Below are positions 20,454 to 41,896 of a stretch of DNA of 64,000 bases, in pieces. Source of the DNA: a virus (lineage: Duplodnaviria; Caudoviricetes); IMG/VR virus record IMGVR_UViG_3300032030_000020, positions 32,001 to 96,000 of that record. One strand, 5' to 3'. How positions within the stretch are numbered: position 1 is the stretch's first letter; each line of letters opens with the position of its first letter. The notes beneath the pieces are model-generated. The model ran no database searches, was not told the origin of the DNA, and saw only the letters and a list, made by a program, of their open reading frames with translations. The position numbers and the translations under genes were made by a program.

Positions 20454-20467
20454 ATGGAGAAATAAAA

Positions 20468-21826: not shown

Positions 21827-21854
21827 GGAATAAATTTTGTCGGCTTTAATATAC

Positions 21855-21879
21855 GCCCCGTCTTCGGACGGGGTTTTTG
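21855..21879 (+). terminator. Intrinsic terminator
   Basis: GCCCCGTC-TTCG-GACGGGGT-TTTT. Confidence 0.85.
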
Positions 21880-21940
21880 CAATTGCGCGTAAGCATTAAT
21901 GCCGAGTCCGCAACTCGGCGTTGTAGAAAGGAAAAATAAT

Positions 21941-22480
21941 ATGAAAAACAGACATTCAGTATTTACATTGGCGTATCGCAAAAGCTATTACATTCTCCGG
22001 CCGTGGAAACTCATCCACGAAACATATTGGAACATCCGCAACTTTATCCATCGCGGAAGGTACGGTTTTGCCTATGTCGACACATGGAACTGGAACAACT
22101 GGTGGGCAGAAATCGGAGCTGAAGCTCTGAGATACATGGCAAAACATGGCAATGCCTACCCTGGAGTCAAGCCTTACGATACGCCTGAGATTTGGCGCAG
22201 ACATCTATTGGAGACGGCCGAGAAGTTAGAATGGTGTTCCAAGTCGATGGAAGAAACATCTAACGAGTATCAGAAAGAATTCACGGAGATGTGCGACCGG
22301 TGCACGGTGCATGAAACAGACGGAGCTTTTATGACATCCCGTTTGGAAATGACAGAAAAAGACAAAGAGATAAGAGATAAATATTTTAAAAGAGAAGAAG
22401 AATTGCAGAAAGAAAATCAGGAAAGGAGAGCTGAGATTCTGGCCGAGATCGGCAGGAATTTCGAGATGTACTGGGACTGA
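21941..22480 (+). CDS. Hypothetical protein
   Basis: RBS AAAGGA; ends in the YWD motif common in phage ORFs. Confidence 0.75.
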   Translation: MKNRHSVFTLAYRKSYYILRPWKLIHETYWNIRNFIHRGRYGFAYVDTWNWNNWWAEIGAEALRYMAKHGNAYPGVKPYDTPEIWRRHLLETAEKLEWCSKSMEETSNEYQKEFTEMCDRCTVHETDGAFMTSRLEMTEKDKEIRDKYFKREEELQKENQERRAEILAEIGRNFEMYWD

Positions 22481-22702
22481 ATGAAAAGAGAAATTAAGAT
22501 TATTAGATGTGATCGCTGCGGAAAAAGAGTAAGCGAATCAGAACACGCTATAATTACAATTAGAAGGCCCGGATGCAATTATTCCGATCTATACGATATA
22601 TGCAAAGACTGTGTAAACTTCTTTGAGTCGGAAATGAAATATAAAGAAAGAGTAAAAGAGTTTTTCTGCGATCTTTCAGAAGAAGAATTAATCAAGGAGT
22701 AA
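22481..22702 (+). CDS. Zinc-finger hypothetical protein
   Basis: CDRCGK...DICKDC. Confidence 0.7.
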   Translation: MKREIKIIRCDRCGKRVSESEHAIITIRRPGCNYSDLYDICKDCVNFFESEMKYKERVKEFFCDLSEEELIKE

Positions 22703-22705
22703 ACT

Positions 22706-23109
22706 ATGAACGGAATGACAGAGTTTATAAAATTTTGTATGCGGCAAAATATAAAAGACCTGTACGCAAAGAACGAAGACGGAGAATATATTTTGCTGCC
22801 GTTTACACTTTCATATGAAGAACGAAGCGGAGACGAGTACGGCACCGAATTTTACGCACCAAAGAAAGAAGAAACTACTTTCACTCAAAAATCTAGCAAG
22901 AACACTCCTGATTCAAGAAAGTCGCCTGAATGTCATAACGCTCAAAAAATCTTATAGGCCAGTGGCGTGGAAGAGACGTAACGTGCGAACCAGACGGCAG
23001 GGTAATTTTCCACTTCAACGACACAACAGAAGCCGATGATTTCTTGAATGCCCTTGAAGCTAAATGGAGAATTGAGCCATTTATATTGCAAAGAAAGGAA
23101 AAAAGATGA
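22706..23109 (+). pseudogene. Hypothetical gene with apparent frameshift at the A6 run (22944-22949)
   Basis: First frame stops at 22957; the -1 frame is open to TGA 23109, which overlaps the next ATG. Confidence 0.55.
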
Positions 23110-27534: not shown

Positions 27535-29754
27535 TTAAGCAAATAAAGCATCAATTTCTGCGTCTGTAATGGCAGGAACCAAGGAATAAACACCGTTAAC
27601 AATCTGAACTATCTTGCCGTTATTTTCGGCTGTAGGAGCCGGAACCTGTCCTGTAAGATGTACTCCGTATAGCTGAACATCTCCACTCGTAGCCTTCAAA
27701 ACAGCGTTAAGACCCGCTTTAAGATTTTTTGCCGTCATGACACGACTTGTTTTTGCAGTACCTGTGTTCATTTCGGTCGAACTCATGGCAGAATAAGTCG
27801 TGTTTGCGTCGTAATAATTCAGCACACACCAGCGGCTCATTGTAACGTTTGCTGTTGATGCCCCTGCTGCTGCTCCATCTTTTGTATTGCCATATAGAGC
27901 AGTTGTACGACCAGTCTGAAAAACAACTTCAATTGTTTCGTCAACAGGATATTGTGTTGTTAGGCGAGAAGTGTTGATGCAAGCAACTGGATAATAGTTC
28001 GTACCGTTATCCACGCTCATCCATACGCCTGCATCGACAACCGCAACAGGAATCTTGATAGTTAACCGGTCTCCTTCGACGGGAGTCATTCCCAAATTAA
28101 AACTCCATAGTGCCGGTTTATAAGCCACAGTTGCAGATCCAGCCTGTCCAGCAGTTCCTGTGCCGGTAATAATTTCGTTGATTCCTTTTTGGAGAGTCAA
28201 CTTGCCAGACATCGTATCGCCTGATTTGTTTACTTTTCCTGAAATGTCCTGATGCGCGGTAAGAACTTTTGTACCGCCGCTATATAAACACCCGTCAGTG
28301 CCGACATATGCGGTATCATGAGAGTAAGTTTGTGGGTTGGCCGCCTGAGATGTTGCACCAATCAGGAACAACTTGCTTGAAGAATCCGTAGCTCCGGCTG
28401 TATTCTTCGTGTCGTTGTCTGTAGTCTTATAACCTTTACCTTCAACAAACGACGCAACAGCCGCAGATGTAGGAAGATTTGTACTTGTTGATGCAGCTGC
28501 GATAGAAGTGTCTACACCTTTAGCCGCCGCTTCGCCCAAAGCTTCAATTGCGTTGGCGACAGTAGAAACCGTAGCGGCTTTGTTTGTGGAAGCATTGTAT
28601 GTGCCATCAAACGCATATGTCGTGTTTGTGCCAGGGATCCCAAGCGCTGTAATATCTGATTTTTCGACAGCTACAGCATTTGTAACGTGACCTTCGCTGT
28701 TAGTCGTAATCTTATACAGGCCAGAACTGTAAGCTGATCCTTTTGCGGTAGCGTGGGCGTATGCAATATTGCCATGATCGCCCCTAAAAGCCGTGCTTGA
28801 AGTAGTGCCTAAAGCAAGAGAAGGAGAAATTTCCACATAGTCAGAACCGCCCCAACGGTAAGTCTTGTTTGTGGCTTTATCGACATAGATCTTTCCTGCT
28901 TCACCGGTTAAAGGAAAAGAGTCTTTGTTTGTAAATTCAAGCACATCGTCAACATAGGACGGGAGTTGAGAAGAAGGCACTTTTCCGTTTTCATCCAGTT
29001 CTGCGAGACCGTTGGCGGCGCCTTTTAAGGAAGTGTTCAGTTTGCCGCTGATATCTTGGTGAGCAGTAATAACAGTGCCAAGGTCAACCACGCCGGAAGA
29101 ACCTTTTGACGCACCATTCATCTTAATTCCTGTGATGGTGCCAGTGTTAGCTGTAAAGCCGCTGTCGTTGGTAAGCTGGCTGACCTTTGTAGGAATTTCT
29201 GATTTATCAGCTTTGCCGGAGATATCCTGATGCTCCGTTAACACAGTACCAAGATCCACAACACCAGACGTACCTTTGGATGCACCGTTCATGGTAATTC
29301 CGGTAATTGTACCCAGGTTTGCTGTCGCGTTTTCTGCGATACCGTCCAGCTTTGTTTTATCCGCAGAAGACATAAGACCATCCGCAGAATGAGTCGCAGG
29401 AGAATAAGTAGTATCGTTATCAGGAATCGTTACTGTCATAGGAGAACCAGAAGACGGAGTCAGCGTAATAACATGCCCGTCTGTCTGGTCTTGAGTTAAA
29501 GTATACGTAGTATCGGACGAGCCGCCCGGGAGTTGGCTTACCGGAATCTTGCCGTCTGAACCTAAAGAAGCAACGCCGTTTGCAACGCCGACTTTGTCGT
29601 TATCCACCTTTTCGTCGAGTGCGTCCTGAACACCGTCGATAACAGCGACAATAACGTCATTTGTAGGATACTCGTTCAGCTTCTGGGCGAAATGCGCCAA
29701 ACCATCAGCGTCCAGAAACTTTTTGGGATTCGTTGCCGCATATGTATTCGGCAT
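27535..29754 (-). CDS. Mosaic fibre protein with internal repeats
   Basis: GKxPxSQLP x2; GTITGI.MNGASKG..GVVDLG x2; HQDISGK x3. Confidence 0.8.
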   Translation of the reverse strand: MPNTYAATNPKKFLDADGLAHFAQKLNEYPTNDVIVAVIDGVQDALDEKVDNDKVGVANGVASLGSDGKIPVSQLPGGSSDTTYTLTQDQTDGHVITLTPSSGSPMTVTIPDNDTTYSPATHSADGLMSSADKTKLDGIAENATANLGTITGITMNGASKGTSGVVDLGTVLTEHQDISGKADKSEIPTKVSQLTNDSGFTANTGTITGIKMNGASKGSSGVVDLGTVITAHQDISGKLNTSLKGAANGLAELDENGKVPSSQLPSYVDDVLEFTNKDSFPLTGEAGKIYVDKATNKTYRWGGSDYVEISPSLALGTTSSTAFRGDHGNIAYAHATAKGSAYSSGLYKITTNSEGHVTNAVAVEKSDITALGIPGTNTTYAFDGTYNASTNKAATVSTVANAIEALGEAAAKGVDTSIAAASTSTNLPTSAAVASFVEGKGYKTTDNDTKNTAGATDSSSKLFLIGATSQAANPQTYSHDTAYVGTDGCLYSGGTKVLTAHQDISGKVNKSGDTMSGKLTLQKGINEIITGTGTAGQAGSATVAYKPALWSFNLGMTPVEGDRLTIKIPVAVVDAGVWMSVDNGTNYYPVACINTSRLTTQYPVDETIEVVFQTGRTTALYGNTKDGAAAGASTANVTMSRWCVLNYYDANTTYSAMSSTEMNTGTAKTSRVMTAKNLKAGLNAVLKATSGDVQLYGVHLTGQVPAPTAENNGKIVQIVNGVYSLVPAITDAEIDALFA

Positions 29755-29772
29755 TATACATTTCCCCTTTCA

Positions 29773-29804
29773 AGAAGAATAGGAGAGGGCCGAAGCCCTC
29801 TCCT
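29773..29804 (-). terminator. Terminator/hairpin
   Basis: 10-bp stem AGGAGAGGGC/GCCCTCTCCT with UUCG loop on the minus strand. Confidence 0.7.
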
Positions 29805-29812
29805 TAGTCCAA

Positions 29813-30727
29813 TTACACAGCGGCGATCGCAGCGTCGATTTCGGCATTGGACAGGGCCTGAATCGCGGTGTACACGTCGGAAGCATACTGCTTCACACCG
29901 TACACAGTCGCAGCGGAAGCCAGATCGGTATCTGCGCCCAGCACGGCAGCAGCAGCACCGGCAACGTCATACGCAGTAGAAGCAGTGTACGCAGCAGTAC
30001 CCAGACCATGCACAGCCACATCAGTGCCGTCCACAGCAATCGTGCCGTTAGCAGAACCTTCAGCAACAGACTGCACAGCGCTGTCAGCCGCATCCAGAGA
30101 ATTCTGCACGGCCTGAGCCAGCTTGGCCTTTGTGATGGTGCCATCGGTAATGGTAGCGGTCACACGATGCTGCGCATCAATGGCGATCACAACCATATCG
30201 CCAGCCTGAGAACCGGAAGTCACGTACTCAATCAGATCGCCAACATTGATGTACAGATCGCTGTCATCCGCATTGGCAAGAACCAGATGGATGTAAGTGC
30301 CTGCGGGGCCCCAAGCACCGGACTCGGACTTGGTTTCCACAGTGCCACTTTCAACCACCATATCCTTCGGGATGTTGATGGCAGCCCCAACGTTCACTGG
30401 AGTACCAGAACCGTTGGGGGTCTTCTGCAGATGATAGATTGCGGCATAGTCGCCGGAATTATCATCCTTCACAATGCTGTAAGTATCCTGATCAGCAATA
30501 GGAGCTACATACAGACCCTTATTGCCAGTGGTCTTCAGCTGCAGCCGGTTATCAGCTTCAGCACTGACCTGCACACCGATGCCATTAACGCCAGTAACAA
30601 CGATAGAGTCGTCGGAAGCCTGAACGTTGTCCAGTTTGCTGTCATACCTGTCCTTAATTTTTTCCCACAGATGACCAACGCCCGCAGAGTTAAGGAATTT
30701 CTTGGTTTCAATTGTTTCGTAAGCCAT
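29813..30727 (-). CDS. Fibre/decoration protein, probably highly expressed
   Basis: INIPKDMVV.SG and GTITKAKLA fibre motifs; GC-biased codons; terminator follows. Confidence 0.75.
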   Translation of the reverse strand: MAYETIETKKFLNSAGVGHLWEKIKDRYDSKLDNVQASDDSIVVTGVNGIGVQVSAEADNRLQLKTTGNKGLYVAPIADQDTYSIVKDDNSGDYAAIYHLQKTPNGSGTPVNVGAAINIPKDMVVESGTVETKSESGAWGPAGTYIHLVLANADDSDLYINVGDLIEYVTSGSQAGDMVVIAIDAQHRVTATITDGTITKAKLAQAVQNSLDAADSAVQSVAEGSANGTIAVDGTDVAVHGLGTAAYTASTAYDVAGAAAAVLGADTDLASAATVYGVKQYASDVYTAIQALSNAEIDAAIAAV

Positions 30728-30786
30728 AATGATATACCTCTTTCTTTAAATATTTATGTCTAACAGAATATCTGTTGACAACATGA

Positions 30787-32226
30787 TTACGCCTGATATG
30801 CAGGCACAAATTCGCCGCCTGTTACGGTGACGTTAGGAGTTGCTTCGTTGGACAGAACTTCAAGAGAATGATCTGTTCCAACGAACTTACCGCCGGTAAT
30901 TGTCAGAGACATACCGGCTTTGCCGGGATAGTTCGCGGTTTCGTGATAGATCACAGCAGAAGCGGACATCTTTGTCTTATTGTCGCCAACCCAGCCAGGG
31001 GTATGGTCGCCGCCAACAGCAACGACTTCGCCGCCGTTGATGGTGACGTTGCCGCCACGCATTAAGATGCCGCAACCGTTGTTAGAACGAATCTTGCCGC
31101 CGTTCATAACAAAGGTGTCATTGTTCGCAATGTACACACCGCAGGATTCATATCCGTTGGACGTGATGTTGCCAACCAGTTCACCATTGTTGAAGGTGAC
31201 GGTATTTCCGCCACGGCCAGATGTACCGTTTGTAAAGACAGGGAAGTTATCGATACCAGAAATAGTACCGCCGTTAATTTCGATGACGCCCTTATCGAAT
31301 GCTCCGATGCCGCCTTCTTTCGCAGAGATAGATCCGCCGTTAATCGTGACTTTGGAGCCGTCCCCAAGCGCAGACAGAGCAACGTCGCCAGACTGATAAT
31401 TGCCGCTATCGACAATGACTTCGCCACCGTTTTCAGCCTGAGCAACGCGTTTGTTAGCTTGGACATTACCGTTTTTGATTGTCAGCTTTGAGCCGTTAGC
31501 AACCAAAGCATAACCGTCTCCGGAATAGGTAAGCGTATTGCCGCCAAGATCCAGAGTTGTATCATGCGTCAAAGCAACAGCCATAGACAAAGTCACATCA
31601 GCGCCAAGATCTACGTTGCCGCCTTTAACAAGGAGCTCTTTCAGGGCGGCTTCGCTTGAAGCAGAACCAGTAATAATATCCAGCTCGTAATTAGACAGGC
31701 TTTCAATTTGGATAATAGCTCCAAGATTGTCCCATCGAGATTCTTCAGCGTTCCATGCATAGTTTGTGCCATCTTCTTCAACATCGTAAACATCTCCGTT
31801 CTGGGGATTCTGAATGTTTTCAAGATCAGCAACTTTGGCAACTTTGCCGCAGTATTTGTAAACTTTGCTTACAGCGGTTCTAACTTCTTCCAGCTCATCT
31901 TTGGTTGCAGCGTCCGTGATTCCATATCCTTCAAGAGTAGTCGGAGCGTCCTGAATATCGTCCCACTCTACAGGCATTTCGGGATTGTAAACCGTGCGGA
32001 CAACACCGTTTTCGTCGATAGAAAGACCGTCGCCAACTTTAATGCCGCCGAGAGCTTCGGAAGAAGCAGCAGGAAGTTCGTAGTTTTCAAGATCTGCAAG
32101 TTTTTCCTTTTCTTCCGTCGTAAAGTTTTCGTCGGAAAGTCCTTTGCCGGATTCTTTCTTGAGATAAATTTCACTAGCTTTATCCCATAAGTATTTAACA
32201 CCAGTAGAATCTAAATATTTACTCAT
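30787..32226 (-). CDS. Fibre protein with C-terminal beta-helix
   Basis: GKGLS..NFT.EEK.KL, LGGIKVGDGL, PTTLEGYGITDA; repeated xING/GG coils. Confidence 0.8.
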   Translation of the reverse strand: MSKYLDSTGVKYLWDKASEIYLKKESGKGLSDENFTTEEKEKLADLENYELPAASSEALGGIKVGDGLSIDENGVVRTVYNPEMPVEWDDIQDAPTTLEGYGITDAATKDELEEVRTAVSKVYKYCGKVAKVADLENIQNPQNGDVYDVEEDGTNYAWNAEESRWDNLGAIIQIESLSNYELDIITGSASSEAALKELLVKGGNVDLGADVTLSMAVALTHDTTLDLGGNTLTYSGDGYALVANGSKLTIKNGNVQANKRVAQAENGGEVIVDSGNYQSGDVALSALGDGSKVTINGGSISAKEGGIGAFDKGVIEINGGTISGIDNFPVFTNGTSGRGGNTVTFNNGELVGNITSNGYESCGVYIANNDTFVMNGGKIRSNNGCGILMRGGNVTINGGEVVAVGGDHTPGWVGDNKTKMSASAVIYHETANYPGKAGMSLTITGGKFVGTDHSLEVLSNEATPNVTVTGGEFVPAYQA

Positions 32227-32244
32227 GCATTTCGTCTCCTTTCT

Positions 32245-32481
32245 TTAAGTATTTATAAGATCATTGAGATCGTCCTGAGAAAGGGGCGTAGTAGGAACAC
32301 CGCCAAGTCCCAGATCTTCTAGCGTCAGATCACCGGAAAGCTCAACGCCATTAATCGAAGGTTTATTAATTAATCCATCGTAGTCGCCGGGTTCCTTACT
32401 TTCTTTTTCCGGTACAGGAGTTGTAAGCGTGAGAGTAAACATATTCCCACTTCTTACAGAATGAATGTCGGGATTGTACAT
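32245..32481 (-). CDS. Small fibre adaptor
   Basis: DY..L.NKPSINGVEL.G..T.EDLGL motif. Confidence 0.7.
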   Translation of the reverse strand: MYNPDIHSVRSGNMFTLTLTTPVPEKESKEPGDYDGLINKPSINGVELSGDLTLEDLGLGGVPTTPLSQDDLNDLINT

Positions 32482-32847
32482 TTACTCACCACCTTCATTT
32501 TCTGCGTAGGTTATTTCGTCCGTCAAAACGAAAGTGCCAACAAAGCTTTCCTTAATAAAGTTTTGATATTCCAATTGAATATCGAACACATAATTCGGAA
32601 AGCGTGTGTCGTTTACAATCATTTTGTTTGTATCTTTAGGTTCGATTTTTATTTGATAATCACCGAGACCAAGCTTGGTAATACCGCCCGTGCTAAGTCT
32701 TTTTTGAAACTCATATAAACGGTCTCTTTTATTTCGCTTGACTGTGAAATAAATCTCATCAAAGTCCACGTCTGCGGCTGTACCGTTTCGTTCATTGACT
32801 AAAAACCGAACCAGTCTGATATCGCCTCTAGGCATACTAATTCTCAT
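32482..32847 (-). CDS. BppU N-terminal-like beta-sandwich adaptor
   Basis: ISMPRGD...YFTVK...I.PKDT...YVFDIQL. Confidence 0.65.
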   Translation of the reverse strand: MRISMPRGDIRLVRFLVNERNGTAADVDFDEIYFTVKRNKRDRLYEFQKRLSTGGITKLGLGDYQIKIEPKDTNKMIVNDTRFPNYVFDIQLEYQNFIKESFVGTFVLTDEITYAENEGGE

Positions 32848-32865
32848 CTGGTTCAGCTCCTCTCA

Positions 32866-33186
32866 TTACCATCTGCGTTCTTCCGGATAGGGAAAAGGAT
32901 AATGCCCAGACATGTCAGGACCCATGTCACGGCTGCGCATTCCGCGCATATATGGATCAGCGTAAGAATTGTAAGAATTACCCATGCCATAAGAGCTGTA
33001 ATTCTCAGGCGGCATCTCAGAACCTTTCATTGCCGTAAACGTAGCAAGGCTCTTCATTGCATGAGTAAGAAGATCAATCTTACGCAGGTCGCCTTCGCTC
33101 ATTTCAGCTCCTGTACGATACTTTTCTTCGAGCAGTTCAAGCTCTTTGCAGAGTTTGTTTTCAAGAATCATATATCTATTGTTCAT
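32866..33186 (-). CDS. Conserved hypothetical protein (spore-like cluster)
   Basis: Helical N-terminus; low-complexity Y/M/S/R tail. Confidence 0.7.
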   Translation of the reverse strand: MNNRYMILENKLCKELELLEEKYRTGAEMSEGDLRKIDLLTHAMKSLATFTAMKGSEMPPENYSSYGMGNSYNSYADPYMRGMRSRDMGPDMSGHYPFPYPEERRW

Positions 33187-33200
33187 ATCTCAACACTCCT

Positions 33201-33656
33201 TTACGCCAGCCGGGTGACTTCAACATTCAGATTGCGAAGGTTAAGAGCCGGAGCGACAGCCGCAGGCGTAGCACCTTCAGAAGCGTTCTCTACGGCTACC
33301 GTATAGCAGCAACCCGCAGGGACATCTACGATTGCAAAATTACTAACATTCCAGTAAGAATCGACAACCGTCGGAGTGGCAGTTCCAACACTCGATTGGT
33401 CAATTTCTCCGCCGATAGCAATAGCAAGCTGGATCTCACCAACTGTACCGTCTGTAGGAACAGCAATATTACCGCTGTAGGCAACACGATACCGAGCAAA
33501 ACGTCCGCAGGGATTGTTGACAATGCCGCGCAAAGTAAGAATGCCAGAGCCGGGACGATGGATCACATAGCCACGATTGCAGCCAATGTTGTCATCTAAA
33601 AGAGCAGAAGCTCCGGGCTGCACAAATTGTACAGGAACATAATTGTATTGAGCCAT
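33201..33656 (-). CDS. Beta-sandwich (BclA C-terminal/TNF-like) protein
   Basis: HRPGSGILTLRG...GNIA...CC.TVAVEN. Confidence 0.65.
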   Translation of the reverse strand: MAQYNYVPVQFVQPGASALLDDNIGCNRGYVIHRPGSGILTLRGIVNNPCGRFARYRVAYSGNIAVPTDGTVGEIQLAIAIGGEIDQSSVGTATPTVVDSYWNVSNFAIVDVPAGCCYTVAVENASEGATPAAVAPALNLRNLNVEVTRLA

Positions 33657-33715
33657 AACACTCATTCCTTTCAAAATGTTTAAAGATAAGACAAAGTCTT
33701 AAAATGAAAGATTGG

Positions 33716-33743
33716 AGAAAGAGGAGCCCCTAAAGGGCTCCTC
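33716..33743 (-). terminator. Hairpin/terminator
   Basis: GAGGAGCCC/GGGCTCCTC then TTTCT. Confidence 0.65.
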
Positions 33744-33750
33744 GAAGAAG

Positions 33751-34425
33751 TTACATATTTCCGCAGCCGCAGCTGAAATTCTGATTGCAACAAGAAGGAT
33801 TCTGGACCAGGTAGGCAGGCCGAGGTGTCGGAGCCAGATACTGCTCAAGCGCCGCAGTCTGAGCTTCGTTGTTCGCGAGAATAGTAGCCGTCTGAGCATT
33901 CTGAGACGCCGCAAGATTAGCCATCGTAAGCTGCTGACGAAGCATAGAGATCGTCTCGTTCTTAGCGTCGATCTTATCCTGACACATCGTGTCGAGAATG
34001 CGCTGGGTAGAAGCATTGTTAGCTTCCAGAACATCGCGCAGAGCCATAGAGATGCTATTGCGATCCGCACACGCTTCTGTAGCGACGGCATATTTCAGGT
34101 CGCCAATGCCGCTCTGAAGAGCAAAGTTCTGATTCATGTCAGCCATCTGCCGAGAGTTGGCGGAAATCTCAGCCTGGGCAAAACCGTTGGTGATCGCGTT
34201 CTGGATTCCTGTGATACCGCTCATAACGGCGTTCTGATCAAAGCCCCGCTGAATATCGGAATAACCACTGTTTCCGCCAAAGCCAAATCCATTACCACCC
34301 CATCCGAACATTGCCATCCAGATGAGCAAGAACCAGAGACCGTTACCGCCAAACATGTCGTTCGAGTATCCTGAATAAGCAGGCGCAACGGGCATATACA
34401 TTCCATTTCCAGTTTCGTTAACCAT
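33751..34425 (-). CDS. Gly-rich TM, coiled-coil, Cys-tailed spore-coat-like protein
   Basis: WFLLIWMAMFGWGGNGFG, IQRGFD, C-terminal CC...CGCG. Confidence 0.75.
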   Translation of the reverse strand: MVNETGNGMYMPVAPAYSGYSNDMFGGNGLWFLLIWMAMFGWGGNGFGFGGNSGYSDIQRGFDQNAVMSGITGIQNAITNGFAQAEISANSRQMADMNQNFALQSGIGDLKYAVATEACADRNSISMALRDVLEANNASTQRILDTMCQDKIDAKNETISMLRQQLTMANLAASQNAQTATILANNEAQTAALEQYLAPTPRPAYLVQNPSCCNQNFSCGCGNM

Positions 34426-34562
34426 AACTGGTCAACTCCTTCTGAATAAGATTTGCTTTGACCAAGCAAAGCATTGTGATAATTGCTTACTTAACACGGC
34501 AAACATCCAAGCGTGCCGAACCCCCTTATGCGAACCGAGTCGCGCGGGATTCGTATTCAATT

Positions 34563-34594
34563 AAAAAGACGCTACGGGAAAAATCCCGTAGCGT
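34563..34594 (-). terminator. Strong intrinsic terminator
   Basis: 11-bp stem ACGCTACGGGA/TCCCGTAGCGT, then CTTTTT on the minus strand. Confidence 0.85.
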
Positions 34595-34717
34595 TGTTTA
34601 ACTTCAAGCTCTTCTATAAAGTCATTCACACATTGTACACTGCGTAAGTTCGTTATTCGTTTCTGAACGAGATAAGAGATGAAGATTAAACCAATATTCA
34701 TAACAAGCAGATGCTTG

Positions 34718-35476
34718 CTATGGTTGATTATTCCACGCATACAGATCGATGTTCTGTATAAAGTGGTCTGGGATCTCAGGCTGTGTTTTTACGGCTTTAG
34801 CTCTGCATCCGTTAACATACACATCTAGATGAGCGGAGCCACCGTAGTAACACATCGCCAGATATCCGTTAAAATAGCTGTTGCTGATCCAGATGTCCCC
34901 TTTAGCGTCTGGGAGATCCACGTTGTGATATCGCACCGTAATGCTATCTTCTACGCCGTTGTCAAAATAGCAGTTGTCGATAATGATTCTCGCGTTCTGT
35001 GCAACGCCGCCGCCGATGCAGTTGGCGTTTTTAAGCAGCCGCCCAACAACTCGACAGTGACGATACTCGTTGATATATGGCTGATCCCAATGCCATAAAT
35101 CATCGTGAATGGCGTACAACATACCTTCAGCATAAAGATTCAGTCCGTCCAGTATCACGTTCCCGCCGCTGTAGATTACGGAAAAGTTATCTGTTCTGTC
35201 CCATGTGCATGTGAGTTTGGAGCCCGGTAAAAATATGACAGTACGATCATGAAGAAATATGCCTTTTGCAAAAACATCCGGCACGTTTTTTCCAAACAGC
35301 GTTTCATATTCTTCCCGGATATCGTATTCACCGGGAGAAACAATAACTGTTTCTTTGCTGTCTATTGTTTCATAGATAGCCTGCGTAAACGATTCATATT
35401 GCATGTCTTGCCCGACAGTTATATCCGCCAAAGCAACAGAAGGAATCAGCAACAGAAGTAGCAGGATTCGTTTCAT
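34718..35476 (-). CDS. Secreted pectin-lyase-like beta-helix protein
   Basis: Signal peptide MKRILLLLLLIPSVALA; ITVG...Y.S.TQAI...V.PGEY; YAIHDD; RBS AAGGAG. Confidence 0.7.
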   Translation of the reverse strand: MKRILLLLLLIPSVALADITVGQDMQYESFTQAIYETIDSKETVIVSPGEYDIREEYETLFGKNVPDVFAKGIFLHDRTVIFLPGSKLTCTWDRTDNFSVIYSGGNVILDGLNLYAEGMLYAIHDDLWHWDQPYINEYRHCRVVGRLLKNANCIGGGVAQNARIIIDNCYFDNGVEDSITVRYHNVDLPDAKGDIWISNSYFNGYLAMCYYGGSAHLDVYVNGCRAKAVKTQPEIPDHFIQNIDLYAWNNQP

Positions 35477-35548
35477 ATTAAAATCTCCTTTAGACAGGGC
35501 CTCCTTGCTCAAGGAAGGCCGCTGTCAAGGTATTGAGGAGGAATACCA

Positions 35549-35830
35549 TCACTCGTTGGATTCAGGTTCAGGTTCGGGTTCAGGGTATTTCCGGCGATCA
35601 AACACTTTATTTTCCAGCAGGATGATACGATCGCCACGGTGCTCAGTCATATAAGCGCTGAGAAGCTGCCGGGTTTCACCAGCTTCAGGATTAGCGGCAT
35701 AGCCCCACAGCTTAAAAAGCTTGCTTTCCGCTTCGGTTTTTGTCATATAGACATAGTTCTGCACACCGATGTTATCGCTTGCGAGAACATTAGATTCTGT
35801 AACAGTCCAATACACAGTGTTAGGAGTCAT
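35549..35830 (-). CDS. Hypothetical protein with PE-repeat tail
   Basis: RBS AAAGGA; PEPEPEPE. Confidence 0.7.
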   Translation of the reverse strand: MTPNTVYWTVTESNVLASDNIGVQNYVYMTKTEAESKLFKLWGYAANPEAGETRQLLSAYMTEHRGDRIILLENKVFDRRKYPEPEPEPESNE

Positions 35831-35847
35831 AGTATATCACTTTCCTT

Positions 35848-36831
35848 TCATAGTTCTTTGACGTGGTTGAGCCAAGCGTCGATTGTAATTGCTTCCATTT
35901 TCATGCCTTCCATTACAGAACGATTTCGAATCTGATTGGAAATAAGCATTTTGTCATTCATGGGAATTGTGTTCCAGAAATATTCATACTTACGGAAATA
36001 ATCAGCAAATCGTTTTTCTGTTGCTGTTCTGTAATCCTGATTTTCCTGACTGATCCATTCATCTTTATTCATTGTGTAATATGCGTCAAAGATCATGGAT
36101 ACAGCATAAAACATTGCCTTATCCTGATGTGCGCGCCGCATAAATTCAGTAACCAGTGCATCATTTGAGTCGAGCATATTATTATATGTCTTTAAGATAT
36201 ACTTAGGATCATGTCTGCAAACAGAGTCATCCCGCCATTTCCATAGATAGAACGGCGTTTGACAATATTTCACATTTTCGCTTAAGTTCTGACAGAGAAT
36301 GTTGAAATAGCTGTCTTCGTGAATAGTCAGTTTATCATTCCATCTTATTTGTTTATCGATAAGGTATTGTCTCCTATGAACTTTACCATGGACAAACGTG
36401 CTGTCCATTTCGTGATTGACGTAGTTTGTTGTGGATGGATTGTGCGGATCTTTTGGATCTCTGCTTTCTTCGATGAAGCATGAAACGAGACTATCGAATC
36501 CAACTTCCATTTCACGAAATACAATCCATAAACCACATGCGTTATAAAACATATCATCACAATCACAAAACATAACATAGTCAGCCTTGGAGTAGTTAAG
36601 GCAGGCGTTTCTTGTGGCGGATACTCCGCGATGCGGTTCGTGATGAACTTCAATCTTAAAAGGATAGTTTTTGATATATTCTTCGGGTATTTTGGTTGAT
36701 CCGCCGTCGATACAAATAATAGCGCTAATGTTGTCAAAGTTTACGTTTTGTTGAATGGCAATGCTGTCTAACAACGGTTTAACTACAGTCTTATCTTCGT
36801 TGTACATAGGAATTAAAATATCTAATTTCAT
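35848..36831 (-). CDS. Glycosyltransferase family 2
   Basis: ILIPMYN, IDGGS, GVSATRN, FCDCDD, HEDSYFN. Confidence 0.9.
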   Translation of the reverse strand: MKLDILIPMYNEDKTVVKPLLDSIAIQQNVNFDNISAIICIDGGSTKIPEEYIKNYPFKIEVHHEPHRGVSATRNACLNYSKADYVMFCDCDDMFYNACGLWIVFREMEVGFDSLVSCFIEESRDPKDPHNPSTTNYVNHEMDSTFVHGKVHRRQYLIDKQIRWNDKLTIHEDSYFNILCQNLSENVKYCQTPFYLWKWRDDSVCRHDPKYILKTYNNMLDSNDALVTEFMRRAHQDKAMFYAVSMIFDAYYTMNKDEWISQENQDYRTATEKRFADYFRKYEYFWNTIPMNDKMLISNQIRNRSVMEGMKMEAITIDAWLNHVKEL

Positions 36832-36851
36832 TATGATTAATCCTCCGTTTA

Positions 36852-37721
36852 TCAAATACCTACAAATCTATTTGAATAAGAGCTCCAGTAGTTTGCTGTT
36901 TTATAAGAATCAAGAAGAGATGCTGGAACATAAATACTACCATAATACCCAAGGTAAGATGATTTTGATATGGGTGTGTTTAAAAACATGTTGGCACCGC
37001 CTGCACTTACAACGCTAGACCCAAGTAAATAAACAGCTGATAATTTAATGCAGCTTCCAAAAGCAAAGTCATTAATATAAGTACAAGAAGGAAGGCTGAT
37101 AGATGTAAGTTTTTTACAATTTTCAAACGCATAAGAAGCAATTGTTGTACAAGCAGGAATGCTTACTTCAACAAGATTAGTGCACGCGTCAAATGCACAA
37201 TCACTAATAATCCTAACATTAGGAAAATTTACAATCGTTAAATTAGAGCAATTATTAAAAGCCGAACTACTAATTAATGTACAATTAGGAAAACTTATAT
37301 CGGCAAGAACCTTGCACATCCCAAATGCCGCTTTGTCAATAGTTGCGCAAGAAGGAAAGTTTGCAGTAACAAGACTTTCACAATCCATAAAAGCACCGGA
37401 ACCAACTAATTCACAAGAAGGAAAATTAACAACAGAAAAACCACATCCCATAAATGCGCTACCGTTTATTTCAGTGCAAACAGGAAATGAAATGCTTGTT
37501 AAATAACTACACGAATAAAAGGCATACGATCCCACATATGAACACTTAGGAAAACTAACAGATGATAGTATTTTTTTTATTGATAAGGCAAAATAACTCG
37601 ATGATGATCCATCTTGTATGCTTATTAAAAACCCATCAGAATAAGTGGCCCCATTAATATGTAAACCATAAACATCTTCTTTTTTTTTAATTGCTTGTGG
37701 AAATGCATTAACAATACCCAT
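36852..37721 (-). CDS. BspA-type leucine-rich repeat protein
   Basis: About 8 repeats of 22 aa, L..xSFPxCTxIxxxAFxxC; IYVPASL...YK.A..WS cap. Confidence 0.9.
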   Translation of the reverse strand: MGIVNAFPQAIKKKEDVYGLHINGATYSDGFLISIQDGSSSSYFALSIKKILSSVSFPKCSYVGSYAFYSCSYLTSISFPVCTEINGSAFMGCGFSVVNFPSCELVGSGAFMDCESLVTANFPSCATIDKAAFGMCKVLADISFPNCTLISSSAFNNCSNLTIVNFPNVRIISDCAFDACTNLVEVSIPACTTIASYAFENCKKLTSISLPSCTYINDFAFGSCIKLSAVYLLGSSVVSAGGANMFLNTPISKSSYLGYYGSIYVPASLLDSYKTANYWSSYSNRFVGI

Positions 37722-37725
37722 CTTA

Positions 37726-38856
37726 TCACCCCACAATCAGTACCGAGATCGGAATATTGATCTCCGGTTCTTCACCATAACAGGTTAACGTAATTGAGTT
37801 ATCCGTTTGTGCTGTGCACATAATTTTTGCTTGCGTTGCTGCATCTATTTCTTCGACCGTTGCTGTATTTGCTATGCCAACGACAAGATTTGTATTGGTA
37901 TTGACACCGCTTACTGTAATTGATTGGGTAGGTGGCGTTGCACTAGACCAAGAACCTGCAGCCGCAGTGACGATGGAGTTCTCGCTTGTAAAAGCCATTT
38001 TCTGAAGCGTCCATTGCCCCTTGTAATAAGTAAGCACAAACGGCCGGCTGAGCGTTTGACCATCGAAATAATCCAAATGCGGATAAACATAACACGTAAA
38101 ATTAGTATAACTGTAAGTAGATTCTCTTGAATAAACACTAATATATAACATCAAGCTTGTAGGACCATCTGAATCTATCAGTTCTGGCGCTTCTGCAACA
38201 GCTTTAGAATATATTAAAAATTCGCTTGTTGTTCGTGAAACGTAGCTAAGAATGCCTTGCTTCAGCTGAGCGAAACCCGTTACGAAACCGCTGTCAATGA
38301 ATATGTCTATATTACTGTTTGTTAATACTTTCTCTCCGCCGGAATATAAGCAGCCATCGGTTCCAACATACGCCGTATCATGAGAATAGGTCTGCGGATT
38401 CGCGCCCTGAGATGTAGCACCCACAAGAAATATTTTGGAAGAAGTATCTGTAGCTCCCGCCGTGTTTTTTGTGTCCGTATTTGGATTCGCAGGAATTTTA
38501 CCGGACGTTACAGAAAGCCCTGTCACGTGACCTTTTCCGTCTGTGTTAAGGGTTACGCCTTTTACCACGTCAATGCTCCATGCAGCTGTCGCCCCTGAAG
38601 CAGAAGCAGTCTTGTCAGAACCGGAAGCCGTAGCAGGGGTATAATGATTCGCGGAACTCGTAACCTTCGTATCTGTAAATACAGCCCCAGAAGGCACAGA
38701 AGTAGCAATGGTGTAGCCGCTGTCTTTGATGGTTTTGCCAGTCGTTCCGTCAAACGTAGCGACCCGATTTGCCGTCGCAGATGCAGGGCCTTTGACAAAT
38801 AAAGATTCCAGTTTTGTCTTAAATCTCTGCAGCCCGGATAAATCTAAGAATGCCAT
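37726..38856 (-). CDS. Fibre protein with C-terminal adaptor domain
   Basis: ATFDGTTGK.IKDSG and D.KGHVT fibre motifs; shares a ~52-aa module with the 27535 gene. Confidence 0.8.
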   Translation of the reverse strand: MAFLDLSGLQRFKTKLESLFVKGPASATANRVATFDGTTGKTIKDSGYTIATSVPSGAVFTDTKVTSSANHYTPATASGSDKTASASGATAAWSIDVVKGVTLNTDGKGHVTGLSVTSGKIPANPNTDTKNTAGATDTSSKIFLVGATSQGANPQTYSHDTAYVGTDGCLYSGGEKVLTNSNIDIFIDSGFVTGFAQLKQGILSYVSRTTSEFLIYSKAVAEAPELIDSDGPTSLMLYISVYSRESTYSYTNFTCYVYPHLDYFDGQTLSRPFVLTYYKGQWTLQKMAFTSENSIVTAAAGSWSSATPPTQSITVSGVNTNTNLVVGIANTATVEEIDAATQAKIMCTAQTDNSITLTCYGEEPEINIPISVLIVG

Positions 38857-38872
38857 TCACGTCACTCCTTTC

Positions 38873-39130
38873 TTAGAATCTAGGAATTTGATTCATTGTG
38901 TTTTGGATCTCCTGATCGGAGATATGTCTAGTTTGTTTCAAATACTGAAGCATTTGATTCGGATCATTTCGCATATACATAGGAATGTCAGGAAAAGCCT
39001 GTAGAATAACCGGCATAGGGTTATGCATAGCCTGCATTACCTGGTTCATTCTTTGCATAGGTGTTGTAACAGATTGTACCGGCGGCCGATTCGTAGGGTT
39101 GCTCATGTATGCGTTGTAAAGCTCATTCAT
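38873..39130 (-). CDS. Q/M/N/P-rich hypothetical protein (spore-like cluster)
   Basis: NP..M, DPNQMLQYL. Confidence 0.7.
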   Translation of the reverse strand: MNELYNAYMSNPTNRPPVQSVTTPMQRMNQVMQAMHNPMPVILQAFPDIPMYMRNDPNQMLQYLKQTRHISDQEIQNTMNQIPRF

Positions 39131-39540
39131 CGGTTGCCACCCCGATTTCCATTGTTCTGCATAGACCGAGAAAGATTATGTAGTTCTTCTTTCAGTTCGT
39201 CAAAATCACTTTTCAGTTCGTCAAAATCTTTCTTTACAATATACTGCGTATCGCCGGATATATTATTGGGCAGCAACGCAGGGTTAGTGCGTTCCTTGAT
39301 TGTGTAGTTGATCTCCTGCATGGGATTAGCCATGCCGATAGAGTTCCAACTCTTTAACCAGATGCGCTTTTCAGAGTTGTCCCATAAGGCAATAGGTGTT
39401 TCCGGCGGCCACCCCTGAGGCATCTGGAAAGCCTTGGCTCCGACTTCCCCGTCCACCCATTCCATTGATTTAATGTTAGACGTATAAGACTGTGCCTGCG
39501 GATACATGTAAGGATATTGCGGATAATTGTAATAAGTCAT
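39127..39540 (-). CDS. Conserved hypothetical protein (spore-like cluster)
   Basis: Y/P/Q-rich N-terminus; WVDGEVGAKAF...LWD.....W.KS; coiled tail. Confidence 0.75.
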   Translation of the reverse strand: MTYYNYPQYPYMYPQAQSYTSNIKSMEWVDGEVGAKAFQMPQGWPPETPIALWDNSEKRIWLKSWNSIGMANPMQEINYTIKERTNPALLPNNISGDTQYIVKKDFDELKSDFDELKEELHNLSRSMQNNGNRGGNR

Positions 39541-39552
39541 ATATACTCCCCC

Positions 39553-39927
39553 TTATTCTATTCTCCAAAAGAATGACGCAATTTCAGAACCGGAATCCCA
39601 GCTGTCATAATAATTTCCGTTGATGACTGCGACAGCGTGAGATCCGGTTCCGATAATAAAGATTCCATATAAAAAGCTTTGAGAGAATTCTTTGATTGTA
39701 AGACAACGCGGACATTGATTCGGTAGAACAAACGGTTCGAATCCTTTAAGGTATAGGTATTTACCCCAAACCGCATCCGCAGACGGCATGTTAAACTCCG
39801 CTCTTGCAACGGAATAAAGCTCGTCAAAAGTTTGAATCCACGGCTGATTCAAAGCAATCGATATGGCCCGAACTACACAGTCTGGGACTTCTTTGTTTAG
39901 AGGATTGGGGTTTGCTTTAATCCACAT
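39553..39927 (-). CDS. Putative papain-fold Cys peptidase
   Basis: NPNP...DCVVRAI...HAVAV...YDSWDS (Cys-His-Asp order). Confidence 0.6.
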   Translation of the reverse strand: MWIKANPNPLNKEVPDCVVRAISIALNQPWIQTFDELYSVARAEFNMPSADAVWGKYLYLKGFEPFVLPNQCPRCLTIKEFSQSFLYGIFIIGTGSHAVAVINGNYYDSWDSGSEIASFFWRIE

Positions 39928-41291
39928 TAAAACATGGCGTCGATTTCAGCATCTGTAATAGCCGTGCCAATGCTATCGACTTCATCCTGCAGGTCGGAAA
40001 TATCGCTGTTGATTGTTGCGATGGAAGACGACAACCCTGAGATATTCGTATTGATAGTTTGGATTTTCCCGTTTGTACTTTCGACAAAATTCGAAACGGA
40101 TACGGGATCTTGAGCAGACGAATCAATCAGAATACCTGTTCCGTCTAATGTAACATCTCCACCCATTCCGTTAACAGACCTTACAGAACCATCGCCGTTC
40201 ACGCCGGAATAAGAAACGTTATATAAGACAGTAGTTTGTCCGCCACCCCATTGGAACGTTGTCTTGCTCCATGTATATTTGCCTTGTTCCGGGTTGGGTG
40301 TTGCAGTCCACGTCCCTGCTGTTGGGTGGTCTCGACCGTTCGTGCTGTTCTGATAAACTACCGTACCGTCCTGCACGACATCTCCAAACTCAGCGATTTT
40401 CTGAACCATATACTCAGAATAATATTTTGAGTTGTTGTGATAGGTTGGATCTGTTGTTGGAACATTGGTGCCGCCGCGCTGTCCTACAGCCCACGCTTCT
40501 GCATTTCTTGAGTTTGCGAGTGCGTTTGTTTCAGCTGTACTTGCATTAGTCGCAGACGTAGAAGCTGAACTGCTTGCGCTCAGAGCGCTATCTTTTGCAG
40601 AAACAGCAGATGCTGCACTGTTTGCAGCATTTGTTTCCGCTTGAATTGCTCTGTCTTTTGCTGACACAGCTTCGTCCTTCGCTGTCTCTGTCGCAGTCTT
40701 GGCGGCTTGCGCAGCCGTGTTAGCTGCTTCTGCTGTGGTCTTCGCTGTTTCTGCCAGCCCATGAGCCGTCTCTGCTTTATTTTGTGCAGTTTCGGCTTTT
40801 GTTTGTGCGGTTTCAGCTTGACTTTTTGCTGTTTCGGCTGCGGTCTCTGCTCTTTCGGCGCTTTGTTGTGCTGCGACAGCACTTTCGGACGCTTGTTCGG
40901 CGTAGACTTGCGCTGTTTCTGCGCCTTGTTGATGTGTGCATGCAACTTCAGAATAGTACTTTGCGTTGTTGTGATATGTATCGTCGGCAGATGAGACATC
41001 CACATTCAACCTTTTTCCTGTTGCCCATGCTTCTGCATCTAAAGCTCGCTGTGAAACTTCAGCAATATGTTCAACCCATTCTTCCTGAGTCCCTTCGTAC
41101 CCTTCTGAAACAGCAATTGCATAAGAAGAAACTGGGCCAAGGTTTTGTGTTAAGCCGTCAATATACTCCGCATACAATTGTCCGACATTTCCAGTTGACA
41201 CACCGTCTCCAATCCAGACACGGATGACACCACGGTATAGCGTGACGTATTCTTGGAAGGTTGGATAAAAAGTATAAACTGATTCAGCCAT
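39927..41291 (-). CDS. Coiled-coil tail fibre
   Basis: SYAIAV..GY.GT.EEW; AETAxxx heptads; AEAWA.G...TYHNN.KYYSE x2; V.SVNG..GDV. Confidence 0.8.
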   Translation of the reverse strand: MAESVYTFYPTFQEYVTLYRGVIRVWIGDGVSTGNVGQLYAEYIDGLTQNLGPVSSYAIAVSEGYEGTQEEWVEHIAEVSQRALDAEAWATGKRLNVDVSSADDTYHNNAKYYSEVACTHQQGAETAQVYAEQASESAVAAQQSAERAETAAETAKSQAETAQTKAETAQNKAETAHGLAETAKTTAEAANTAAQAAKTATETAKDEAVSAKDRAIQAETNAANSAASAVSAKDSALSASSSASTSATNASTAETNALANSRNAEAWAVGQRGGTNVPTTDPTYHNNSKYYSEYMVQKIAEFGDVVQDGTVVYQNSTNGRDHPTAGTWTATPNPEQGKYTWSKTTFQWGGGQTTVLYNVSYSGVNGDGSVRSVNGMGGDVTLDGTGILIDSSAQDPVSVSNFVESTNGKIQTINTNISGLSSSIATINSDISDLQDEVDSIGTAITDAEIDAMF

Positions 41292-41896
41292 TATTCATCA
41301 CCGCCCACCATAACAAACCCTGCAGGATTTGAATAAATAGTCGAACCGGCAACGTCCATTATTGCGCAGCGATACTTATTATGGGCGATCGCTTCTTGTG
41401 TTGCCAATGTGGTGTACGTGGAACTGCGAGCGTCTGAGATATCTGTGAACTCCGCTTCGTCGACAGAAATTTGCCATTGATACTTTGCGACTCCGACCGC
41501 TCCAATTGAGAATGTTGCTTCCTGTCCTATCGATGTGACCGTCCAGTCAACAGGCTGTACAATGATTTGCATAGAATCAGGTTGCATAATTTCACGAAGA
41601 TATTGCACATAACTGCTTGAACTCAACTCTCTCGAAGAATGCCGTGTTCCTTGGTTGGTATAAACATTTAACTGTATTGTTATTTCTTCGTCGTCTGCAA
41701 ACAGCAGGCTTTCTTCCTGAGTTAACTGAAATTCAATACTTGTAATGTGCTGATCTTTTGCGATAAACCCGTAGGTGATGGTTTTCTCGAAAACAATACT
41801 TTCTTGTTGCTTATAAGACACGACAACTTTGTTGAGTTCGTTTGCTGCAAAGGGAATTATGAAGGCGTGTGTTATAGTCTCGCCGGGTGTAAACAC
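41291..41896 (-). CDS. Baseplate adaptor with Ig-like domain
   Basis: LTQEESL.F; QP...ATF...YQWQ...YRC. Confidence 0.75.
   Translation of the reverse strand: MFTPGETITHAFIIPFAANELNKVVVSYKQQESIVFEKTITYGFIAKDQHITSIEFQLTQEESLLFADDEEITIQLNVYTNQGTRHSSRELSSSSYVQYLREIMQPDSMQIIVQPVDWTVTSIGQEATFSIGAVGVAKYQWQISVDEAEFTDISDARSSTYTTLATQEAIAHNKYRCAIMDVAGSTIYSNPAGFVMVGGDE

Follow-up and report, generated by a model that had tools for sequence, protein, structure and literature searches.

In a gut phage genome of 132,669 bases, the separately made segments of two virion fibres are probably joined end to end by short peptides at their termini, referred to here as the N-motif and the C-motif, as the sequences and the order of the genes suggest. 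The genes lie on the minus strand of the window, which is the whole stretch of DNA analysed (64,000 nucleotides, positions 32,001 to 96,000 of IMG/VR record IMGVR_UViG_3300032030_000020), and all feature coordinates below refer to that strand. In the model that we favour, each fibre would consist of separate proteins joined in gene order and would begin with a small adaptor of the beta-sandwich type (201 aa in the first fibre and a putatively LtfC-like protein of 121 aa in the second), which would carry a short 'initiator' (454 or 78 aa) ending in the C-motif, a predicted acidic helix with a serine or threonine cap. The N-motif, a predicted short strand followed by a basic amphipathic helix, would dock onto the C-motif of the preceding protein; proteins with both motifs would extend the chain and a protein with only the N-motif would terminate it. 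The first chain would most likely run 201 -> 454 (or 85) -> 376, and the second 121 -> 78 -> 479 (the tailspike) and/or 304 -> 739. We infer the contact between the N- and C-peptides, the trimeric state and the site of the fibres on the virion.

The recurrence of the two motifs was first noticed in a sequence-only reading of the window, and all of the N- and C-motif strings that it quoted are present at the protein termini to which it assigned them. Both motifs are short (10–16 residues) and were defined by the patterns [FY]LDxxG[LV]xx[FLW] for the N-motif and [LI][ST]xx[ED][LI][DN]xx[FILM] for the C-motif. The N-motif occupies residues 13–28 of the 739-aa protein, 11–26 of the 304-aa protein, 4–19 of the 479-aa protein and 3–18 of the 376-aa protein, and the C-motif forms the final 11–14 residues of the 739-, 304-, 454- and 78-aa proteins, with an internal copy, SLSNYELDIIT, at residues 176–186 of the 479-aa protein. 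When all six frames of the window and of the whole genome were searched, a loose form of the N pattern matched only the four named N-termini and four short non-genic frames, and the C pattern matched the four named C-termini and, by chance, residue 5 of the tape measure protein. An HMM built from just the 12 residues of the C-motif was powerless, and the pattern followed by a PSSM, trained on the window and loci L002–L140, was used instead; this scored the four tails at 32, 30, 29 and 13 bits and the internal copy at 5.4 bits, with a threshold of 4.1. A fifth, C-like tail, HISDQEIQNTMN, overlooked in the earlier reading, lies 17 residues before the end of an 85-aa protein (16.9 bits). By sequence, this phage appears to have at least three N-types and three C-types. 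Each motif is a short helix in the AF2 monomer models of the 479- and 304-aa proteins, and the mean charge is +1.6 for the N windows and -2.5 for the C windows, an opposition that is partly built into the patterns used.

The second chain would be headed by the putative LtfC-like beta-sandwich adaptor of 121 aa (32482..32847). Its family is related to the adaptor of locus L141 (hhalign probability 94.9%, E 4e-8), which in turn matches the Pfam LtfC model PF23926 at 27.7 bits (cut-off 27); the 121-aa protein itself has no direct match in Pfam, PF23926 included, and its family profile matched nothing in the PDB. Next comes the 78-aa initiator or connector (32245..32481), in which the family alignment reveals little besides an NKP-ING repeat and the conserved tail bearing the C-motif PLSQDDLNDLINT (32248–32286). 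The 479-aa tailspike-like protein (30787..32226) comprises the N-motif (32170–32217), a 170-aa stalk, the internal C-motif SLSNYELDIITG (31666–31701) and a right-handed beta-helix. Its AF2 model (pLDDT 85.8) has helices at residues 7–20 and 179–186 and a beta-helix at residues 203–474, where regular short strands with pLDDT of 91–98 form a parallel beta-helix fold, and its best Foldseek matches are the phage tailspikes 6e1r, 5w6p and 8oq0, at borderline E-values of 1e-3 to 3e-2, with 6e1r and 5w6p at about 1e-3. The 304-aa extender (29813..30727) has an N-motif (30650–30697), a central beta domain and a C-motif, ALSNAEIDAAIAAV (29816–29857), with helices at residues 19–32 and 294–303 in its AF2 model, and more than 1,851 homologues in which both ends are kept; a 'TNF-like knob' was considered for its core and rejected, the match to TNF ligands being weak (E 0.34) and unsupported by the fold search. 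The last fibre gene, after which the lysis cassette begins, encodes the 739-aa distal fibre (27535..29754), which consists of an N-motif (29671–29718), repeats, a C-terminal domain and a C-motif, AITDAEIDALFA (27538–27573), which is without an obvious partner. The gene that follows 304-like genes in relatives encodes a protein of 117 to 1,773 aa beginning KKFLDAxGLTYFxxKLNNYP.

At the head of the first chain is the 201-aa adaptor (type 2; 41291..41896), residues 1–105 of which share 36% identity (E 8e-20) with a 106-aa protein of L147 that heads a chain of C-only, N+C and N-only proteins. In L002, L003 and L013, homologues of 107–135 aa are encoded just ahead of the 454-like genes. The 201-aa protein showed no relation to the 121-aa family. 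The 454-aa initiator (39927..41291) has a conserved 80-aa N-terminus, shared with proteins of 201–243 aa in relatives that end ATDEDIDALFGIS, and an Ala-rich coiled coil, and it finishes with coiled coil and the C-motif AITDAEIDAMF (39930–39962; PSSM 29.3 bits), without a distal knob. The earlier reading had each C-only protein directly following a BppU-like adaptor gene: small genes do precede them (201 before 454, and 121 before 78), but BppU_N was absent from both the 201- and the 121-aa protein in Pfam searches with E-values up to 5. The 85-aa protein (38873..39130), with its PSSM-detected C-like tail at 38891–38926, is encoded directly upstream of the 376-aa N-only fibre, the putative cap (37726..38856), and the pairing of an 83–85-aa protein with an N-motif fibre, there of 719–869 aa, is kept in L086 and L104. 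The N-motif of the 376-aa fibre, FLDLSGLQRFKTKLES (38803–38850), is of an 'RFK.KL' subtype, which, without the glycine, also begins the giant fibres encoded after 454-like genes in relatives.

The motifs also occur in other phages. Across IMG/VR, 350 stretches fit the N-motif pattern and 286 of these were confirmed; judged by sequence, matching end peptides of this kind recur in hundreds of further phages whose hosts are of the Gram-positive type. An N-motif HMM matched 39 ORFs, every time within residues 1–17, and in the first set of loci 73 of 99 C-pattern matches lie no more than 30 residues from the stop codon, where 28 were expected. As an independent test set we used 80 loci seeded on the N-motif only, to which the C-PSSM was applied. 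N- and C-motif genes co-occur as neighbours across these loci, which bears out the association expected from the earlier reading, and a C-motif gene directly precedes 80 of the 95 N-motif genes (84%). Adjacent unique pairs number 80 for C followed by N, 24 for C followed by not-N, 15 for not-C followed by N and 478 for neither, an odds ratio of 106 (p 2e-61) from counts that ignore shared ancestry; a single ancient cassette of three genes may account for much of this adjacency signal. Of the 15 exceptions that lack a preceding C-motif, about nine have degenerate tails, for example ITNTWMDTNLT. The most frequent run is C-only, N+C, N-only (23 unique cases and three at locus edges), and the full order of adaptor, C-only, N+C and N-only is found in L141, L143, L147, L148, L149, L150 and L117, as well as in the Streptococcus prophage Javan191, where proteins of 98, 70, 197 and 171 aa, encoded at 37291–38933 of MK448700, are followed by a holin. 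The four proteins of the L141 chain measure 114, 80, 452 and 279 aa. The predicted order, with a C-only gene after an adaptor, then an N+C gene and then an N-only gene, accordingly recurs in many independent lineages, and conservation of the motifs extends to very distant ones, TGA- and TAG-recoded phages included. In several close relatives the 304-like gene is preceded by that of a 137–144-aa coiled-coil protein without a C-motif, which implies that partners are not always neighbours. The L005 initiator is present on the same contig, further upstream (L082). FP_Brigit-like phages have a related C-tail, IATDxEVxEMLxEVF, with a different N-terminus, and their cassette sits between the genes for the terminase and the portal; the appendage is thus not necessarily a tail fibre.

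The same arrangement bears on an alternative that we regard as unlikely, in which a shared anchor, the N-motif, fixes every fibre on its own to a hub (the adaptor, Dit or Tal), the C-motif serves as an unrelated terminal helix for trimerisation or capping and the fibres stand in parallel. Known phages as a rule have N-terminal anchors of this kind that several of their receptor-binding proteins share. LtfC of DT57C captures the N-terminal strands of LtfA (PMC10713586); the partnerless C-motif of the 739-aa protein would fit, and the internal copy in the 479-aa protein could simply be a helix ahead of the beta-helix cap, as in the AF2 model. A common anchor, however, leaves unexplained why 84% of N-motif genes stand directly behind a C-motif gene and why in most lineages the first protein has no N-motif and the last no C-motif, and it gives no role to a protein of 70–80 aa of which the tail alone is conserved.

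If end-to-end docking is the better account, its form would differ from that first proposed, in which N+C extenders were able to self-polymerise. Chains typically have a single N+C protein, and the first-joint motifs are systematically unlike those of the second joint, which favours ordered assembly instead. The caps form 20 clusters among 28 and the extenders 3, and such diversity of caps beside uniformity of extenders usually marks exchangeable receptor binders that share a conserved anchor. A covalent (isopeptide) joint was rejected, as the residue that follows the S/T, the candidate for such a bond, is not constant (D/N/Q/T/E). The internal C-motif of the 479-aa protein is a possible branch point. 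Tentatively, and with more doubt than conviction, we suggest that the peptides might constitute a docking code made up of several orthogonal specificity classes, in which the internal copy is a true branch point and the tailspike bears the 304/739 fibre. The two joints of a three-protein chain would then use different motif variants, the code would set the order of the segments and block self-polymerisation, and phages that infect Firmicutes-type hosts, ranging from prophages of Streptococcus to gut siphophages of 130 kb, would swap receptor-binding tips as ready-made plug-in parts. Were docking true, it would account for the way in which many phages with Gram-positive-type hosts assemble and refit their host-recognition fibres from separately encoded parts, it would supply a sequence rule for reading fibre architecture in metagenomes (which genes make one fibre, in which order, and which encodes the distal binder), and the peptides would represent a small natural connector pair.

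Gene fusions in relatives tie the 121-aa adaptor, the 78-aa protein and the beta-helix of the 479-aa protein to one assembly: the 121- and 78-aa proteins are a single protein in L008, L015 and L017, and the 78-aa protein is joined to the beta-helix in L002 and L010, with the junction exactly at the C-motif. The earlier reading had also taken the motifs to be two halves of a split domain, for which natural C-then-N fusions would be informative. None was found in any ORF of the ~220 loci, in 147 proteins representing the NKP-repeat fibre family or in a search of the 78-aa family profile against 1.84 billion representatives, which yielded 10,055 proteins, mostly with the widespread NKP-ING fibre repeat. 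A split (tag/catcher-like) domain is therefore unsupported: the searches contained no contiguous form, the N-motif is internal in none of the ~2,400 genes of related loci, and each motif is a short helix by itself in the AF2 monomer models.

Upstream of the 304-aa gene, 18 nt (30740..30757) repeat the end of the 78-aa gene together with its RBS; one frame of this copy gives ...STDILLDINI*, a vestigial C-motif, and the copy reads as the footprint of an insertion of the 479-aa cassette between the 78- and 304-aa genes. It also suits the improbable proposal that recombination maintains the motifs as module boundaries, serving as conserved linkers for swaps of fibre cassettes with no binding role of their own, since the genes are mosaic, the 479-aa form resembles a cassette inserted at a C-motif and the caps are freely swapped. 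Against this, motif DNA within the genome shares at most ~11 consecutive bases, which is insufficient for homologous exchange, and differs at synonymous sites. The C-motifs of the 739- and 454-aa genes are identical at 25 of 33 bases with every difference synonymous, and there are no long DNA repeats, which points to selection at the protein level, with conservation reaching as far as the recoded phages. Boundary recombination and docking are not mutually exclusive. Chance or low-complexity composition, which the shortness of the motifs might suggest, is ruled out by their strictly terminal positions across six frames of 132.7 kb and by the position counts of the N-motif HMM and C-pattern matches.

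The module is common, yet its proteins have no functional names, and we came across no publication, Pfam model or solved structure that covers the motifs. Searches of Pfam and PHROGs with the module proteins returned generic tail-fibre and unknown-function families, none of them covering the motifs, and PDB sequence searches with the 304-aa, adaptor and N-motif profiles, the 739-aa protein and a distant N+C protein returned nothing relevant. Matches to crAss-like phages were discarded, the shared element being a 'GKGLSTNDYT' stalk repeat and not the N-motif.

Comparable designs exist. The long tail fibre of T4 consists of gp34, gp35, gp36 and gp37, separately encoded segments joined end to end in gene order, but its joints are made by globular domains and a monomeric hinge protein, with no recurring peptide pair; there is no sequence relation to the proteins described here, and the T4 parts are not known to serve many lineages as a reusable kit. 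In the baseplate of TP901-1 and Tuc2009, BppU holds BppL (and BppA) trimers, three BppL trimers being held through its C-terminal domain. The likeness lies in a post-Tal adaptor that carries exchangeable receptor-binding trimers in siphophages of Gram-positive hosts; we know of no serial chain or shared terminal peptides in that system, and PDB 4v96, which we take to be this baseplate, was a non-significant match in the fold search. [quoted passage not shown] In the KP32 type the system is modular and a short conserved N-terminal peptide docks an exchangeable second receptor-binding protein onto another one, a feature with a counterpart in the N-motif, which lies within residues 1–28 of four proteins. 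The socket of the KP32 type, however, is a branching domain like that of T4 gp10, situated close to the N-terminus of the first protein, whereas the presumed socket here is a helix of 10–14 residues at the extreme C-terminus, with three or four proteins at most in series; in Pfam scans, none of the 20 module proteins had a gp10-like, Collar or Gp10_C domain, and the N-motif is unrelated in sequence to the Klebsiella peptide, which makes this an analogy and not a homology. In T5 and DT57C, a ring of LtfC holds LtfA, from which LtfB branches off, and the N-terminal strands of the DT57C fibre extend the sheets of the LtfC adaptor (PMC10713586). There a small LtfC-type beta-sandwich adaptor begins the fibre, as the 121-aa protein, whose family is related by profile to an LtfC-like protein, may do in the second chain, while no counterpart of the C-motif/N-motif pair downstream of the adaptor is described for DT57C (PMC10713586). 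Podophage A1002 has 'chain-like fibres' built as beads on a rope, which is another design.

The two terminal motifs, one a short peptide near the N-termini of the 739-, 304-, 479- and 376-aa fibre proteins (the N-motif) and the other ending the 739-, 304-, 454- and 78-aa proteins (the C-motif), recur in a way that is real and not due to chance. Every motif string quoted in the sequence-only reading was found in its place, and a search with both patterns, covering all six frames first of the window and later of the complete genome, returned the four N-termini, the four C-termini and almost nothing besides. The internal C-motif of the 479-aa protein was borne out by a position-specific scoring matrix (PSSM), though more weakly, and the same matrix revealed a C-like tail that had been missed, at the end (HISDQEIQNTMNQIPRF) of an 85-aa Pro/Gln/Met-rich protein (38873-39130, minus strand) just upstream of the 376-aa fibre. 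Comparable pairs of a small protein and an N-motif fibre recur in two related loci from other phages (L086 and L104), and the 85-aa protein may be a third kind of chain initiator, one without an obvious adaptor. A profile built from the four N-motifs matched 39 ORFs among the first 80 related loci, with the motif within residues 1-17 in all of them, and the C pattern lay within 30 residues of the stop in 73 of 99 hits, where 28 were expected.

The genes belong to a phage genome represented by one contig of 132,669 bases, of which the window covers bases 32001-96000; in window numbering the tail module extends on the minus strand from roughly 64000 to 24400. It opens with a tape measure ORF (48732 to beyond 64000; genome 80732-102460) that, at 7,242 aa, is exceptionally long by siphophage standards, followed by Dit (354 aa, with a Sipho_tail match that is weak at 22.3 bits, just below the Pfam cut-off of 24.2), Tal (1,744 aa; Prophage_tail), the fibre genes discussed here and a lysis cassette with Phage_lysozyme2 and an SH3_3-like match just under the Pfam cut-off. 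No DNA-level relative was found among deposited phages; Faecalibacterium phage FP_Brigit has a protein that shares 62% identity with the 304-aa core. The 376-aa gene is followed immediately, in the interval separating the fibre chains, by genes for a BspA-type LRR protein (PF13306, E 3e-35), a GT2 glycosyltransferase and a 264-aa protein with no Pfam match (34718-37736, minus strand). Small Tyr/Gly/Cys/Pro-rich proteins also occur within the module (32866-34425 and 38873-39927), resembling in their composition small proteins adjoining the holin in the crAss-like phage cr10_1 (L145, 9580-10649).

Gene order across phages was used to test the grammar of the motifs, whose peptides would dock on each other. 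A first adjacency count over 139 loci and this genome gave 24 cases of a C-tail followed by an N-head, against 65, 33 and 2,175 in the remaining cells of the table, an odds ratio of 24, using a pattern that missed obvious variants and loci chosen through their fibre genes. A cleaner test was therefore run on an IMG/VR scan in which the N-motif was the sole seed; of its 350 matching stretches 286 were confirmed, and 80 loci were kept. C-tails were scored there by a PSSM trained solely on the preceding loci. In unique pairs of neighbouring genes, a C-tail gene came immediately before 80 of the 95 N-motif genes but before only 24 of the 502 others, giving an odds ratio of 106 (p 2e-61). These counts, like the first, are raw and uncorrected for common descent, and a single old cassette that has spread widely contributes to the signal. 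Most of the 15 exceptions show degenerate tails.

Runs of flagged genes most commonly read C-only, N+C, N-only (initiator, extender, cap), and this order after a small adaptor, as had been predicted, was found in L117, L141, L143 and L147-L150. Javan191, a deposited prophage of Streptococcus equi, shows it too, as a 98-aa adaptor, 70-aa C-only, 197-aa N+C and 171-aa N-only proteins and a holin. Between their termini the caps fall into 20 unrelated clusters among 28, whereas the extenders are essentially one family, as would be expected of exchangeable distal binders that share the N-motif as their constant anchor.

If each fibre were anchored to a hub on its own, the common N-motif would be accounted for, but this leaves unexplained why the first protein lacks this motif and the last lacks the C-motif, and why C-motif and N-motif genes adjoin in that order. 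That the motifs are purely recombination linkers is unlikely: between the 739- and 454-aa genes just 25/33 motif bases match, every difference is synonymous, and there are no long DNA repeats. Cassette exchange at these boundaries clearly occurs as well.

The two joints differ consistently in 31 unique three-protein chains. At the first, initiator tails of the form x[LI]TNx[ED][IL][EDL]N[LI]L precede extender heads YLDx[ND]GL[LI]Y; at the second, extender tails [SA]I[TS]N[AS]EIDTI[LV]AS precede cap heads [YF]LD[KQ][TA]GL[ATS][YH][FL]W. This fits joints that are specific and made in a set order, and it speaks against the earlier proposal that extenders self-polymerise. The further idea that the motifs are halves of a split domain drew no support from the loci and fibre-family proteins examined, among which no single-chain C-then-N form was found. 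The window subtypes are different again (three C-types, three or four N-types), and partners were assigned mainly from gene order and relatives. The 78-aa C-motif would pair with the N-motif of the 479-aa protein, the 304-aa protein or both, and the 304-aa C-motif with the 739-aa N-motif, an adjacency kept in most relatives. The C-motif of the 454- or 85-aa protein is predicted to meet the 376-aa N-motif; in relatives, 454-like genes are followed by giant fibres beginning LITLENLERFKGKL, the 376-type head minus a glycine. The 739-aa C-motif was assigned no partner among window proteins.

The 739-, 479- and 454-aa proteins belong to tail or tail-fibre families in PHROGs, and the 304-aa protein matches an unnamed PHROG only. 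In the 454-aa protein a conserved head of 80 aa leads into a long Ala-rich coiled coil and, with no knob, a terminal C-motif. The 78-aa protein has hardly anything besides a single 'DYxxLxNKPxINGVxL' fibre repeat and the C-motif, a tail kept throughout its family of 44 sequences with just 0-3 residues beyond. AF2 models the 479-aa protein (pLDDT 85.8) with the N-motif as a strand and a 14-residue helix, followed by a poorly defined stalk, the internal C-motif as an 8-residue helix, a cap helix and then an extended right-handed beta-helix whose best fold matches are phage tailspikes; in the weaker 304-aa model (pLDDT 72.6) both motifs are again helices. Both models were computed as monomers, and we infer the oligomeric state of the fibres and their location in the virion. 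The 121-aa adaptor belongs to a family that profile comparison relates to an LtfC-like beta-sandwich, and the 201-aa protein, whose first 105 residues match a small protein heading the equivalent chain in another phage, is a second adaptor type. The 739- and 376-aa genes share a 176-nt segment, 70% identical (28265-28440 and 38327-38502), encoding a 'TKNTAGATDxSSKxFLxGATSQxANPQTYSHDTAYVGTDGCLYSGG' module.

Fusions offer a further line of evidence. The 121- and 78-aa proteins, separate in L003 as in the window, form one 209-230-aa protein with a terminal C-motif in L008, L015 and L017, in the last of which a 304-like gene follows directly. The 78-like segment of L002 and L010 does not end at the C-motif (PLSENDLDVIIG, PLSNDDIDAIMG) but continues without a break into the beta-helix found here from residue 172 of the 479-aa protein; the window arrangement therefore looks like an insertion, of a stop, an N-motif, a 170-aa stalk and a second C-motif, into a once continuous gene. 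Such Rosetta-stone-type links suggest that adaptor, 78-aa protein and 479-aa beta-helix are parts of one assembly, with the C-motif probably marking its joint. An 18-nt copy of the 78-aa gene end and ribosome-binding site, in the 479/304 gap upstream of the 304-aa gene (30728-30786, minus strand), encodes in one frame a vestigial C-motif (...STDILLDINI, then a stop) and is presumably the footprint of a cassette insertion.

The docking principle has precedents; for the peptide pair itself, the searches turned up no publication, no solved structure and no model in Pfam or PHROGs that covers it. Joining of fibre parts is known from T4 long tail fibres and from BppU-BppL. It is likewise seen in the LtfC-LtfA attachment of the T5-like phage DT57C, where the lateral fibre is captured by its N-terminal strands in an LtfC ring (PMC10713586), and Klebsiella podophages use a conserved docking peptide (PMC6872550, PMC13352976). 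FP_Brigit (L001) carries a fibre-like variant cassette between its terminase and portal genes (18413-22770), with C-tails IATDxEVxEMLxEVF and N-terminal KLxTLxxL helices, and part of the stalk resembles the phi29 head-fibre family PF11133; given this position and likeness, the appendage may be sited at the neck or head. The first protein of that cassette (183 aa) bears its tail twice in tandem. Several fibre genes per locus in other gut phage groups (L019-L065) show other recurring terminal pairs, N-terminal 'RxDTxxNWxxxNPxLxxGE' with C-terminal 'LxLxGGxA' or 'IDAGEI', which may be further docking systems. Some chain-bearing phages have late genes with in-frame TGA (18 in L143, 7 in L150) or TAG (10 in L148) that terminate at other stops; these lineages are stop-codon-recoded, with TGA or TAG as sense codons.
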